A stretch of 39,605 bases of DNA from an uncultured Candidatus Saccharibacteria bacterium (GTDB lineage: Bacteria > Patescibacteriota > Minisyncoccia > JACQLN01 > CAZPCT01), in NCBI GenBank assembly GCA_964600085.1, contig CAZRHU010000003.1, positions 1 through 39,605 on the forward strand, read 5' to 3'. This document shows positions 2,510 to 28,745 of the stretch, one piece after another. Made by a program: the position numbers and the translations under genes. The notes under the pieces are model-generated. The model was not told the origin of the DNA, ran no database searches, and was given only the letters and a program-made list of their open reading frames with translations. Within the stretch, counting starts at the first letter, position 1, and every line of letters starts with the position of its first letter.

Positions 2510-3433
2510 ATGAAGATTATTTTTTTTGGAACATCAGAGTTTGCGGTGCCGATATTAGAAGCGCTAAATAATAGTGATAATTTTGATATTGGCTTGGTTG
2601 TTGTTGAACCGTCAAAGCCGGCTGGTAGAAAAAAAGAATTACTTTTATCTCCTGTTCATAGTCTTTGTCGAGAAGAAGATCTAGACTTGTTTCCACCAAA
2701 AACTCTTAAAGATTCAGAAGTTCAGAAGATTATAAAAGACGTTAAAGCAGATATTTTTATTGTTGTTTCTTACGGCAAGATAATTCCCTCTCAAGTTTTT
2801 AATTTACCTAAACACAAGACGATTAACGTTCACCCTTCTTTATTACCAAAGTATCGTGGACCTTCTCCAATCCAGTCCACTCTATTAAGTGGAGATAGAG
2901 AAACGGGTGTTACATTAATTCAAATAGATGAAGAAGTTGATCGCGGACCCATAGTTTCTCAAGAAAAAATAAATATCAAAGATAACGACACATTCTTAGA
3001 TCTTGAAGATAAGCTATCACAGTTAGGAGCCGAGATGATTCTTCGTGATTTACCGAAGTATGTTTCCGGAGGTATGGGGCTAATTAAACAAAACCATAAA
3101 GAGGCAACCTTTACAGAAAAAATTAAAAAAGAAGACGGAGAGATAGATTGGAACAACTCGGCGCAAGATATATATAATAAATGGCGTGCTTTTATTAGGT
3201 GGCCCGGCGTTTACACTGTAATAAATAATACTCGCTTTAATCTAAAGAAGGTAAGAATTGCTAAGAATATTAGAGGGAAAGTTAAAGGTGAAATGTTTAG
3301 TGAAGACAAAAGATTGTTTAGGGGTTGTGCTGATGGAGTTATAGAGATAGAAGAAATACAACCCGAAGGAAAGAGCGCGATGGATGCAACCTCCTTTATA
3401 AATGGTTATAAGAACTTTTTATTAGGTTCTTGA
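2510..3433 (+). CDS. fmt: Methionyl-tRNA formyltransferase
   Basis: N-terminal MKIIFFGTSEFAVP and the HPSLLPKYRGPSPIQ formyltransferase motif. Protein is 307 aa and sits in def-fmt synteny. Confidence 0.9.
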   Translation: MKIIFFGTSEFAVPILEALNNSDNFDIGLVVVEPSKPAGRKKELLLSPVHSLCREEDLDLFPPKTLKDSEVQKIIKDVKADIFIVVSYGKIIPSQVFNLPKHKTINVHPSLLPKYRGPSPIQSTLLSGDRETGVTLIQIDEEVDRGPIVSQEKINIKDNDTFLDLEDKLSQLGAEMILRDLPKYVSGGMGLIKQNHKEATFTEKIKKEDGEIDWNNSAQDIYNKWRAFIRWPGVYTVINNTRFNLKKVRIAKNIRGKVKGEMFSEDKRLFRGCADGVIEIEEIQPEGKSAMDATSFINGYKNFLLGS

Positions 3434-6140: not shown

Positions 6141-6163
6141 AAAATGGCGAGCGTTAGCTCGTC
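6137..6163 (-). terminator. Small hairpin plus T-run downstream of tRNA-Gln
   Basis: 7-bp stem at 6146-6152/6157-6163 (one G-U pair) with a GTTA loop. On the minus strand it is followed by ATTTTTTAT. Confidence 0.45.
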
Positions 6164-6178
6164 AAACCGATCTATTTA

Positions 6179-6252
6179 TGGCTGCCGGGCCAGGGCTCGA
6201 ACCTGGATTCCATGGACCAAAACCATGTGTCCTACCATTAGACGACCCGGCA
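6179..6252 (-). tRNA. tRNA-Gln (anticodon UUG) with encoded CCA
   Basis: The reverse complement TGCCGGGTCGTCTAATGGTAGGACACATGGTTTTGGTCCATGGAATCCAGGTTCGAGCCCTGGCCCGGCAGCCA folds by hand into a full cloverleaf. It has a 7-bp acceptor stem with U1-A72, discriminator G, anticodon loop UUUUGGU and T-loop TTCGAGC. Confidence 0.93.
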
Positions 6253-6340
6253 ATGTTTAAAGTTTATTGAGGATAGTTAACTTATCCTTATAAGTCATAA
6301 CATCCTACCATTAGCCTGCCCGGCCAGGGACGACCCGGCA
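6253..6340 (-). mobile_element. 88-nt miniature (internally deleted) copy of the GIY-YIG element, abutting tRNA nucleotide 1
   Basis: It consists of the 3' 37 nt and the 5' 51 nt of the full unit joined together. By eye it is identical to 6636-6723. Confidence 0.8.
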
Positions 6341-6635
6341 ATGTTTAAAGTTTATTGAGGATAGTTAACTTATCCTTTGATCCTTTGTAGCTTTTTAAAT
6401 ACTTTTCTCTTTCTCGTGCTTTAACTTTTGAATCAAAAGTTTCAATATAGACTATTTCAAATGGTATGCGATGTTTTGTGGATTTAACCAATCCTTTATT
6501 ATGATATTCTAAACGTTTAATAACATTCTTAGACATACCTGTATAATATCTATTATCTTTTTTGCTTCTTAAAATATAAACAAAATAAGTCATAACATCC
6601 TACCATTAGCCTGCCCGGCCAGGGACGACCCGGCA
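6341..6635 (-). mobile_element. Full 295-nt GIY-YIG element unit (pseudo-tRNA head, ORF, TAAACAT tail)
   Basis: Its ends are the same as those of the two 88-nt units. The length difference is 207 nt, i.e. 69 codons. Confidence 0.75.
6345..6593 (-). CDS. Small GIY-YIG (URI-domain, COG2827-like) nuclease family protein
   Basis: The 82-aa protein starts MTYFVYILRSKKDNRYYTGMS, giving the GIY and YIG equivalents. It also has the RLEYHN block and a conserved Glu region EREKYLK. Confidence 0.85.
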   Translation of the reverse strand: MTYFVYILRSKKDNRYYTGMSKNVIKRLEYHNKGLVKSTKHRIPFEIVYIETFDSKVKAREREKYLKSYKGSKDKLTILNKL

Positions 6636-6723
6636 ATGTTTAAAGTTTATTGAGGATAGTTAACTTATCCTTATAAGTCATAACATCCTACCATTAGCCT
6701 GCCCGGCCAGGGACGACCCGGCA
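6636..6723 (-). mobile_element. Second 88-nt miniature copy of the GIY-YIG element
   Basis: Same sequence as 6253-6340 by eye. It is followed at 6724-6730 by ATGTTTA, which equals the first 7 nt of a unit. Confidence 0.8.
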
Positions 6724-22298: not shown

Positions 22299-23360
22299 TT
22301 ATTCCTCTGGCGTTGTTTTATTTTCGACATTAACAACTACGTCCTTAAATTTATCTATCTCTTCTAAGACAATACCCGTTCCTCTAACCACTGTGGTTAG
22401 GGGGTCCTCTGTTATTCTTACCGAAATTCCTGTCTCGGTGCTTATTAATTCATCGAGTCCGGAGAGCATACTTCCTCCACCGGTAAGAATTATCCCTCTT
22501 TTCATAACGTCTGAAATTAACTCGGGAGGCGTCTCTTCTATCGTTTCTTTAATGTTACTAATGAGGTTGTTTATGGACTTTTCTAAAGCTTTTCTAACCT
22601 CTTCAGAGGTTAGTTTTATTTCTTTTGGAAGACCGGTTACTAAATCCCTACCCCTTACAGAAATTTCTTTCTTCTCAGCCTCTTTTACAGCGCTTCCCAC
22701 TTCTATCTTAGCTTTTTCAGCACTTCTCTCACCCAATAAAACATTAGAGTTTTCTCTAACTGACTGAATTATATCATCATTAAACTTATCGCCGGCCATC
22801 CTAAGACTCTTAAAAGTTACCATTCCTCCCAAAGATATAATAGCTATCTCCGTTGTTCCTCCGCCAATGTCAACAACCATATTTCCCAGAGCTTCAAATA
22901 TTGGTAACCGAGCTCCTATACAGGCAGCCATCGGTTCTTCTATTAGGTAAACTTCCCGAGCTCCGGCATTTAAAGCTGCTTCCTCCACGGCTTTTTTCTC
23001 TACTTCAGTTATTCCCGACGGAATACCGATAACAACCCTGGGGCGAGGTAATAAGTAACTTCTTTCTTCTTGAATTTCTTTAAAAAAGTAACGTAACATC
23101 TGCTCGGTAACATCAAAGTCCGAAATAACACCCGACCTTAGAGGTTTTATGGCTGTTATGTGGCTCGGCGTTTTTCCTATCATTTTTTTAGCCTCTCTTC
23201 CTATGGCTAAAAGTTGTCCTGTTTTTTTATTTACAGCCACCACAGATGGTTGATCAATAACTATTCCTCTTTCTTTAACATAAACCAAGGTATTAGAAGT
23301 TCCTAAATCAACCCCTACATCTTTACCAAACCGACCAAGAAAAGAGTCTAAAAACTTCAT
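22299..23360 (-). CDS. mreB: Actin-like rod-shape protein MreB
   Basis: Contains DLGTSNTLVY, VVDIGGGTTE and ILTGGGSML, and heads the mreBCD-mrdA cluster. Confidence 0.92.
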   Translation of the reverse strand: MKFLDSFLGRFGKDVGVDLGTSNTLVYVKERGIVIDQPSVVAVNKKTGQLLAIGREAKKMIGKTPSHITAIKPLRSGVISDFDVTEQMLRYFFKEIQEERSYLLPRPRVVIGIPSGITEVEKKAVEEAALNAGAREVYLIEEPMAACIGARLPIFEALGNMVVDIGGGTTEIAIISLGGMVTFKSLRMAGDKFNDDIIQSVRENSNVLLGERSAEKAKIEVGSAVKEAEKKEISVRGRDLVTGLPKEIKLTSEEVRKALEKSINNLISNIKETIEETPPELISDVMKRGIILTGGGSMLSGLDELISTETGISVRITEDPLTTVVRGTGIVLEEIDKFKDVVVNVENKTTPEE

Positions 23361-27754: not shown

Positions 27755-28745
27755 AAAGAGCTCTTTTATATAACTTTAGATTCTCTAAAGCTATACCCGC
27801 TCCTTTAACAACACAAATTAAAGGATTATCAGCCACATAACAAGGAACACCTGTTTCTTGAGTAATTAGTTTGTCTATTCCCTCAAGAAGGGCTGTCCCC
27901 CCGGCTAAAACCATACCCTTATCCATAATATCAGCCGATAGTTCCGGCGGTGTTTCTTGTAAAACTTTTTTTATTGTCTTTATAATTTCTAACATTATCT
28001 CTTCTATAGCTTTAGGAATTTCATTGGAGTGAAGTTCTATATTTTTTGGAAGACCGGCAACTAAATCTCTTCCTCTAATCTCTAGAACACTCTCTTCTTT
28101 CTCTTTTACAGCAGAACCAATAGCTATTTTAATCTCTTCAGCTGTTCTCTGGCCGACTGCTAAATTGTGTTCTTTATGAATATAATTTTGGATAGCGCCA
28201 TCTATCTTTCTTCCACCAACTCTGCTAGAAGCCCAGGCTACTATACCGCCTAAAGATATAACAGCCACTTCAGTTGTTCCTCCTCCGATATCTATAATCA
28301 TATGGCCCGAGGGCTCATTTATAGGTACTCCGGCCCCTATAGCCGCTAAAACCGGCTCTTTGGCTACATAAACAGCCTTTGAGCCGGCTTTCATAACCGC
28401 CTCAACCACTGCTCTATGCTCTGTAGAGGTAATTCCGGCAGGAACAGACACCATCACCTCTGGCCTCAAAATTCTTATCTTACCCATAGCTTTCTTAATA
28501 AAGTACCTGATTAAAGCTTCTGTTACTCTGTAATCGGCTATAACACCCTCTTTTATGGGTTCTACGGCGGCAATGCTTTCCGGAGTTCTTCCTATCATCT
28601 CTCGAGCATCTTCTCCAACGGCAACAACCTTATTATCATCCAAACTCACAGCCACCACAGAAGGTTCATTTATTACAATTCCCTTTTGAGGTATAAAAAC
28701 CAGGGTATTAACTGTTCCTAAATCTATGCCTATTTTTCTAACCAT
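27738..28745 (-). CDS. Second MreB/Mbl-type actin homologue
   Basis: Contains IDLGTVNTLVF, IIDIGGGTTEVAV and VLAGGTALL. It overlaps the holB start by 17 nt. Confidence 0.88.
   Translation of the reverse strand: MVRKIGIDLGTVNTLVFIPQKGIVINEPSVVAVSLDDNKVVAVGEDAREMIGRTPESIAAVEPIKEGVIADYRVTEALIRYFIKKAMGKIRILRPEVMVSVPAGITSTEHRAVVEAVMKAGSKAVYVAKEPVLAAIGAGVPINEPSGHMIIDIGGGTTEVAVISLGGIVAWASSRVGGRKIDGAIQNYIHKEHNLAVGQRTAEEIKIAIGSAVKEKEESVLEIRGRDLVAGLPKNIELHSNEIPKAIEEIMLEIIKTIKKVLQETPPELSADIMDKGMVLAGGTALLEGIDKLITQETGVPCYVADNPLICVVKGAGIALENLKLYKRALFAKNR

Follow-up and report, generated by a model that had tools for sequence, protein, structure and literature searches.

The tRNA-Gln(UUG) gene on the minus strand of contig CAZRHU010000003.1, from an uncultured Candidatus Saccharibacteria bacterium, is adjoined at its 5' side by a tandem array of short units, in which a unit of 295 nucleotides (nt) encoding a small GIY-YIG nuclease stands beside 88-nt units that have lost most of the nuclease open reading frame (ORF). 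We analysed the array within the whole 39,605-nt stretch of this contig (the window, 39.6 kb) and compared it with related loci in other genomes. We consider it probable that the 88-nt units, here called minis, are ORF-deleted relics of a small selfish cassette that, in Patescibacteria, occupies tRNA-Gln genes between the promoter or leader and the mature 5' end.

In the assembly the minus-strand order is a mini (M2), the full unit (F), a second mini (M1) and the intact tRNA gene (Table 1). Every unit opens with TGCCGGGTCGT, the insert CCCTGGCCGGGCAGG, CTAATGGTAGGA, TGTT and the ATG of the ORF, and closes with TAAACAT, the head of the unit being tRNA nt 1-23 broken after nt 11. The three 43-nt heads of the array are identical, and a mini consists of the first 51 nt and the last 37 nt of the full unit with every shared base identical; the units therefore resemble each other far beyond what chance would give. 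The common prefix and suffix at the mini junction (TAT/AAG) add up to exactly 88 nt, so that the junction contains no microhomology. The initial annotation had described two identical 88-nt copies that keep these two ends after a precise in-frame loss of codons 4-72, and on the assembled sequence this is exact: M1 and M2 are 100% identical, the lost 207 nt are codons 4-72 of the ORF of 82 amino acids (aa), and the remaining reading frame encodes MTYKDKLTILNKL followed by a stop codon. ARAGORN and Rfam recognised the complete gene at the end of the array as a tRNA and made no such call on the heads, and Rfam found no other match in the region. No inverted repeat joins the ends of a unit, and in the 39.6-kb window no head occurs outside the array. 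The direct repeats that bound the units are 11-18 nt long and made up of tRNA nt 1-11 and leader bases; a carried replacement of the tRNA 5' end explains them just as well as a target-site duplication would. The mini junction also creates a 16-nt quasi-palindrome, ACTTATCCTTATAAGT on the plus strand (6280-6295 and 6663-6678), with an 8-nt perfect core CTTATAAG; its two 6-nt arms lie more than 200 nt apart in the full unit, and it is a possible clue to how the deletion formed.

Table 1. Features of the tRNA-Gln array
Feature	Position	Strand	Basis or remark
Native tRNA leader TAAACAT; also the final 7 nt of every unit, where it holds the ORF stop codon	6724-6730	minus	left direct repeat of 18 nt
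Mini unit M2, 88 nt	6636-6723	minus	sequence identity with M1; physical presence as a second copy doubtful (depth test)
Full unit F, 295 nt: head, GIY-YIG ORF and tail	6341-6635	minus	sequence comparison
Stand-alone GIY-YIG nuclease gene, 82 aa (Slx1-like / UPF0213 type)	6345-6593	minus	Pfam, PDB match, 36 homologues
Mini unit M1, 88 nt: head, ATG plus 3 codons, last 10 codons, stop, ACAT	6253-6340	minus	junction unitig depth 20.4
M1 deletion junction	6290/6289	minus	sequence comparison
Residual 13-codon ORF (MTYKDKLTILNKL, then stop)	M1 6257-6298; M2 6640-6681	minus	not conserved among minis of other genomes
Copy of tRNA nt 1-11 (TGCCGGGTCGT), first part of each unit	6330-6340, 6625-6635, 6713-6723; original 6242-6252	minus	
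GC-rich near-palindrome of 15 nt (CCCTGGCCGGGCAGG), splitting the pseudo-tRNA head between tRNA nt 11 and 12	6315-6329, 6610-6624, 6698-6712	minus	
Copy of tRNA nt 12-23 (CTAATGGTAGGA); GTAGGA 5 nt before ATG, likely ribosome-binding site	6303-6314, 6598-6609, 6686-6697	minus	
Intact tRNA-Gln(UUG), adjoined by the array	6179-6252	minus	ARAGORN; Rfam tRNA model, 57.9 bits, E=1.6e-11
Terminator-like hairpin and T-run 3' of the tRNA; likely end of the transcription unit	6148-6161	minus	consensus scan only

The protein of the full unit matches Pfam PF01541 with 57.1 bits against a cut-off of 22.6 (E=2.3e-15), its residues 3-72 covering profile positions 2-74 of 78. The most similar protein is the stand-alone UPF0213 protein BH0048 (PDB 1ZG2, E=2e-6), and in that alignment VYIL, YYTG, KR..H and ..E..K of the full copy line up. 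A mini, which lacks residues 4-72, has lost the GIY and YIG motifs, the conserved Arg and Glu and with them the whole catalytic domain, which bears out its description as an internal-deletion derivative of the adjacent nuclease unit that keeps both ends and no catalytic residue. The 82 aa make up a single catalytic domain in which neither an accessory domain nor a DNA-binding module for a long target was detected, and NCBIfam models gave no match to the protein. Full-length homologues are 56-66% identical to it across all 82 aa. The database gene call for the contig (P0001, 63 aa, 6345-6533) begins at an internal ATG; the homologues and the spacing between GTAGGA and ATG place the true start at position 6593.

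That the cassette is an insertion is seen at an orthologous site outside the window. The gene order ftsE-ftsX-tRNA-Gln(CUG) is common to several Yanofskybacteria-like genomes, and the site between ftsX and the tRNA is polymorphic among them. It is empty, with the native leader running directly into the tRNA, in L058-L061 (whose FtsX is 76% identical to that of L038) and in L055 and L057 (82%); it holds a mini in L038 and a full cassette in L049. In L038 the native leader, with the upstream hairpin that L055 also has, is followed by the head instead of the functional tRNA, which identifies the head as the old 5' end of the gene and places the cassette between the promoter or leader and a regenerated tRNA. 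Around the neighbouring gene dnaX we found no empty site for comparison, the closest DnaX proteins being 57-58% identical and their loci (L047 and L048) having no tRNA-Gln beside dnaX.

The same layout recurs widely. Head-pattern scans of one genome per species and of JGI metagenomes gave 15 and 27 loci, respectively, all named ones being Patescibacteria metagenome-assembled genomes (MAGs), and protein-based look-ups, which are independent of the head, gave the same architecture at tRNA-Gln in L001, L003, L004, L049 and L050; the head pattern was absent from viral contigs. Across 35 Patescibacteria tRNA-Gln loci the order is local tRNA nt 1-11, GC-rich near-palindrome, tRNA nt 12-23, a GIY-YIG gene of ~82 aa and the intact tRNA. 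With duplicates removed, all 42 heads lie directly 5' of tRNA-Gln or of another unit. Counting minis against full units had been proposed in the initial annotation, and across related genomes the 42 heads divide into 30 full units, six minis outside the window, the two window minis, three units with ~130 nt of non-coding cargo and one complete tRNA-Gln that carries the insert only (L024). The loci comprise 35 distinct tRNA-Gln genes (19 CUG, 16 UUG), each with an upstream head, as expected from the way in which they were found. Nucleotides 1-11 of the head equal those of the local tRNA at 25 of the 35 loci, despite at least 12 different acceptor sequences, and the other 10 heads differ from it by one to a few changes.

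The six minis of other genomes (L007, L018, L020, L022, L026 and L038) retain 15-50 nt between head and tRNA, and in five of them the beginning or the end of the ORF can still be recognised from its codons (ILENL or NL before the stop, for instance, or an initial MSWYVYIL). This agrees with the expectation that ORF-less units would be found in relatives. Their deletion junctions, however, all differ from each other; each mini stands alone directly 5' of tRNA-Gln, with no dispersed examples among them. The ATG is missing from several minis, and one of the deletions breaks the reading frame. The peptides encoded are MDSL, MSWYVYILVSY or none. A nuclease ORF with a premature stop codon occurs in L037. 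No dispersed, amplified copies with a common junction were seen among the heads scanned. Differing junctions and a solitary position at the tRNA argue for recurrent decay in place, and not for the spread of one derivative.

Whether the window really contains two minis is a separate matter, which we addressed with read-derived data. The public data that contain this DNA are one run, available as k=31 unitigs. For each unitig, the 31-mer count in the assembled window was compared with that in alternative arrays, depths being expressed relative to the single-copy flanks (~14). The unitig graph breaks at each repeat boundary and forms a cycle through the common head and tail; the deletion junction of the mini and the tail-to-head junction between tandem units are each spanned by a unitig, at depths of 20.4 and 16, respectively. 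The presence of both junctions in an independent graph means that a mini in tandem with another unit is real and was not built from one full copy. The observed relative depth was 1.46 for the mini junction (three units predict 2, two units 1), 2.21 for the head (3 and 2), 1.14 for the tandem junction (2 and 1), 1.11 for the ORF body (1 and 1) and 2.04 for the tail (3 and 2). Squared errors sum to 0.29 for an array of one mini and one full unit, to 2.59 for mini-full-mini and to 5.99 for the full unit alone. A single full copy as the sole content is thereby excluded.

The claim that minis flank the nuclease copy on both sides fares less well, in that one mini in tandem with the full unit is real while the symmetry has no backing from k-mer depth. 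It is an even bet, in our judgement, that the three-unit array is partly an artefact of assembly, the real content being a full unit in tandem with one mini, or a mixture of alleles in the population, and the assembler having looped once too often. The cycle of the k=31 graph through the shared head and tail would allow this, the depths of the tandem junction (1.14) and of head and tail (2.0-2.2) lie nearer to the values for two units than to the 2 and 3 predicted by three, and many Logan contigs of relatives end exactly at this repeat. The depth of the mini junction, on the other hand, is intermediate between the values for one copy and for two, sequencing may have under-represented the GC-rich palindrome, and read pairs or a longer k may have resolved the order in the original assembly. 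Depths of short unitigs are also noisy, so that three units are disfavoured rather than excluded. Two identical minis flanking a full copy are hence unverified: the mini is real, its duplication doubtful, and the second copy may be an extra pass through the repeat cycle or be present in part of the population only. An artefact of this kind would touch copy number alone and leave the mini and the tandem junction as they are. For the quality of MAGs it is relevant that short-read assemblies are broken by the repeat at tRNA-Gln and may contain too many copies of it.

Most likely, in our view, the cassette behaves as a free-standing homing-endonuclease gene that targets the 5' part of a tRNA gene. 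Beyond tRNA nt 11 it consists, in 5' to 3' order, of the near-palindrome (CCCTGGCC..GGGCAGG), tRNA nt 12 to ~23 with GTAGGA, the nuclease gene, and a last portion made of the final leader bases and nt 1-11. This last portion adjoins the remainder of the tRNA and makes the gene intact again, and the old 5' end stays upstream as a broken head. The cassette would be transcribed from the tRNA promoter, and would spread or persist in the manner of a homing gene. An allele that holds the cassette would thus contain two altered copies of the target, since the palindrome splits the head and the real tRNA has lost its native leader; if recognition spans leader and D-arm, the altered copies would give immunity. 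Because an identical 18-nt sequence (TAAACAT plus TGCCGGGTCGT) bounds every unit on both sides, units can be duplicated or lost by unequal exchange or replication slippage. A tandem duplicate would be free to lose its ORF, and in the window one probably lost codons 4-72 in a single deletion without microhomology, leaving a mini beside a full copy; the second identical mini would reflect one further unequal exchange or an over-count by the assembler. Minis formed in this way would require neither function nor mobilisation in trans, and would represent the stage of degeneration of the gene.

Several points weigh against this account. The protein appears to be a catalytic domain only, and in 82 aa would have no obvious means of recognising a long homing site. 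Stand-alone GIY-YIG proteins have moreover been grouped with the structure-specific Slx1 lineage (Dunin-Horkawicz et al., PMC1564403). The conserved palindrome has no directly evidenced role in it. The nt 11/12 junction of the regenerated tRNA is intact, so that immunity would require recognition that reaches into the leader. Slippage does not explain the deletion itself, as its junction has no microhomology, and if the order mini-full-mini is right, at least three rearrangements took place without divergence, as active copying would give. Finally, the MAG Kiruna2_bin-0995 has the same ORF-less unit at both of its tRNA-Gln genes (L011 and L012), and in L012 this unit lies upstream of a full unit with a head that matches the tRNA of the other locus (TGCGGGA, against TGAGGGA in the local tRNA), which looks like movement of an ORF-less unit.

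Such movement is what the initial annotation had proposed for the window, where the minis were taken to resemble miniature inverted-repeat transposable elements (MITEs). Head and tail would then be all that the machinery needs, the neighbouring nuclease would mobilise them in trans, and repeated insertion at the tRNA 5' end would build the array. We think this unlikely, although the assembly does contain two identical minis with zero divergence from the full unit across the shared 88 nt, the intact nt 11/12 junction makes re-insertion beside the tRNA conceivable, ORF-less units make up about a fifth of all heads, and L012 amounts to a second tandem array of an ORF-less and a full unit. Depth favours one mini over two, terminal inverted repeats are absent, and no mini was found away from the 5' end of tRNA-Gln or elsewhere in the window. 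The proposed comparison of junctions among minis returned independent junctions in all six outside the window, with no accompanying full copy, as decay in place predicts, and gave no support to the idea that a single derivative was propagated. The Kiruna2_bin-0995 pattern is compatible with mobilisation in trans and with segmental duplication, as the downstream flanks of L011 and L012 are a shared repeat, and a segmental duplication could account for both. A broader version holds that these units form an undescribed class of mobile cassettes specific for tRNA 5' ends (Gln, Tyr, Ala and Phe), whose domain-only nuclease acts on tRNA D-arm DNA or else on the palindrome, which could serve as a cruciform or small dimeric site, and copies the unit into a transcribed tRNA 5' end while regenerating the gene. 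Head and tail would be sufficient for copying, ORF-less units would be copied in trans to give tandem arrays, and minis would be one visible product. We put this forward tentatively, as a rather improbable scheme.

It is very improbable that the minis are maintained for a function of their own, either as a gene for the 13-aa peptide or as a leader or spacer RNA that tunes tRNA-Gln expression. The deletion does keep the GTAGGA ribosome-binding site, start and stop in frame, but one deletion in three would do so, and the in-frame state of the window mini is most likely such a chance outcome. The 13-aa product is likewise probably fortuitous, because minis elsewhere encode different peptides or none. 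At the RNA level, the fold of the short head is not superior to those of shuffled sequences (z = 0.6), the head variant of L009 being the only one that stands out (z = -2.7), and we postulate no RNA structure; the region has no Rfam family match. The reverse order of events would start from an ancestral tandem repeat of 88 nt, the middle copy of which gained an insertion of 207 nt. Geometry alone permits it, and we reject it: the 207-nt segment is preceded by 9 nt and followed by 30 nt that encode the N-terminus (MTY, continued by FVYIL) and the C-terminus (KDKLTILNKL) of the homologues, and in other genomes lone full units without a mini are the rule. ORF-deleted relics of a tandemly duplicated selfish cassette remain our preferred description of the minis.

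Across the family, ORF ends fall between -15 and +16 nt from the tRNA start. At 11 loci the nuclease ORF has no stop of its own and runs via tRNA nt 1-12 (encoding ..CGIV) to a TAA in the D-loop, giving an overlap of mRNA and tRNA of 14-15 nt (listed for L008, L013, L014, L016, L023, L030, L035, L046 and L050). The gap between GTAGG and ATG is 2-13 nt, with a median of 6, in 27 units, and GTAGG(A) of the D-arm copy probably serves as a ribosome-binding site, which would be a reason that this tRNA fragment is kept.

The near-palindromic insert is present in all 42 heads, in short, long, nested and tandem forms. It may be 15 nt, or ~31 nt resembling a tandem of 15 and 16 (L035), or three tandem copies of 34 nt (L027), or one 15-mer centred inside another (L022, L030 and L041); it behaves as though able to expand or re-insert by itself. 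In this genome 13 of the 15 positions of the insert at 6315-6329 agree with the 3' end of the local tRNA, CCCTGGCCCGGCAGC (6182-6196). We nonetheless reject that 3' end as a local template, for the insert is constant where the tRNA 3' end differs; it may preserve a trace of the tRNA-Gln in which the cassette first formed. In L029 a second, similar hairpin lies in the anticodon loop of the pseudo-tRNA. In L015 (6700-6745) the 14-mer CCTGGCCGGGCAGG is intergenic, away from tRNAs and flanked by the direct repeat CTAAGCA(CC)AAATCC, and could represent the palindrome in free form, together with a target duplication. The insert-only copy in L024 (oriented minus strand, ~956-1070) is a full-length tRNA-Gln(UUG) with a 31-nt insert between nt 11 and 12 and no ORF, 18 nt downstream of a normal cassette and tRNA-Gln; it has one acceptor-stem mismatch and no Rfam call, and is probably a pseudogene. 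The ~130 nt of non-coding cargo that replaces the nuclease gene in L011, L012 and L033 contains a hairpin, CTGTTTGT..ACAAACAG. A decayed GIY-YIG gene was considered as the origin of this cargo in L011 and L012 and discarded, no similarity having been found, and Rfam gave no match to the cargo of these two loci or to the interrupted tRNAs of L024 and L029.

We found no account of GIY-YIG cassettes at tRNA 5' ends in bacteria of the candidate phyla radiation (CPR) in the searchable literature. The nearest characterised system is SegB of phage T4, a GIY-YIG homing endonuclease in a phage tRNA gene cluster, with a 27-bp recognition site that includes a conserved tRNA motif, for which cleavage and homing have been demonstrated (PMC2330249). 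Both are intron-less GIY-YIG genes among or beside tRNA genes, present or absent between relatives, and the spread of SegB carries flanking sequence along, which we count as a further likeness. SegB is larger, whereas the cassette protein is an 82-aa catalytic domain whose nuclease activity is predicted from sequence. The cassette also differs in lying inside the tRNA transcription unit, in duplicating the first ~23 nt of the tRNA, in its GC-rich palindrome and in its occurrence in cellular Patescibacteria genomes. The Slx1-like / UPF0213 group (Bacillus halodurans BH0048, PDB 1ZG2; PMC1564403) has the same lone domain at a similar length; a link to tRNA 5' ends, partial tRNA duplication and ORF-less derivatives have not been reported for it in the searchable literature. 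The nearest survey concerns GIY-YIG genes in non-intron insertions of CPR rRNA genes, where short ORF-less insertions are common and tRNA is not mentioned (PMC11270868). Bacterial group, nuclease superfamily and the choice of stable-RNA genes are shared with these insertions, but the latter interrupt rRNA genes and have to be excised from the RNA, whereas the cassette regenerates an intact tRNA gene.

MITEs have in common with the minis that they are short, non-coding internal-deletion derivatives of a coding element with both ends kept. The units in the window, in contrast, have no terminal inverted repeats or dispersed copies, are bound to one kind of site and, with mini junctions that differ between genomes, show no amplification of a single derivative. 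Homing-endonuclease genes reportedly pass through a cycle of gain, degeneration and loss, in the model of Goddard and Burt (mentioned as background in PMC11270868), and the states found here (an empty orthologous site, an intact ORF, an ORF with a premature stop in L037 and ORF-deleted relics) are those of such a cycle, with the difference that a relic also occurs in tandem with an intact copy, which is not predicted classically. The replacement of a gene end has parallels as well. In Allomyces mitochondria, a GIY-YIG ORF located at the 3' end of atp6 supplies a substitute for the gene end that it displaces, and integrative elements restore the 3' end of the tRNA gene that they enter. As in the cassette, an insertion would break an essential gene, a carried copy of the terminus keeps the gene whole, and a pseudo-fragment is left behind; the cassette differs in replacing the 5' end of the tRNA, over ~11-18 nt, without an integrase and with a leftover fragment split by a palindrome. 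We therefore regard the cassette family as a variation on the theme of free-standing homing endonucleases, one that the searchable literature does not describe.

The mini is by itself a modest finding, a decayed copy of a selfish gene whose supposed symmetry around an intact copy may not be real, and its value is that it made the underlying cassette visible. The significance of the cassette is that a domain-only GIY-YIG gene is accommodated between a promoter and the mature 5' end of a tRNA, keeping the tRNA whole by a replacement 5' end, probably borrowing the D-arm as a ribosome-binding site and sometimes the D-loop TAA as a stop. Were the nuclease shown to cut, the UPF0213 / Slx1-like family, which is large and uncharacterised, would gain a function and a substrate, and tRNA genes would join the stable-RNA genes colonised in CPR bacteria.

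The design is not confined to tRNA-Gln, since more distant homologues of the nuclease (50-57% identical) are placed likewise 5' of Tyr, Ala and Phe tRNAs (L051 and L052, 1370-1840; L053 and L054, 1440-1840 on the plus strand and, for the tRNA-Phe cassette on the minus strand, ~2040-2350). The tRNA-Tyr cassette has a copy of nt 1 to ~34 followed by two GC hairpins; that of tRNA-Ala has nt 1-11 followed by a perfect 17-bp inverted repeat, whose right arm is the end of the ORF plus the first 4 nt of the tRNA; and that of tRNA-Phe has nt 1-20, a perfect 20-nt palindrome CCTGCCTGCCGGCAGGCAGG and nt 21-28.

A second class of small GIY-YIG genes (~93 aa) lies just 3' of the same tRNA-Gln genes in L025 (3258-3539), L038 (8181-8489), L055 (~3015-3250) and L026 (2741-3022), and thus also occurs at a site with an empty 5' side (L055). 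Elsewhere in the window, positions 22578-23317 and 27999-28732 share three collinear direct repeats of 50-85 nt at 70-74% identity, ~5.42 kb apart, which suggests two diverged paralogous genes.

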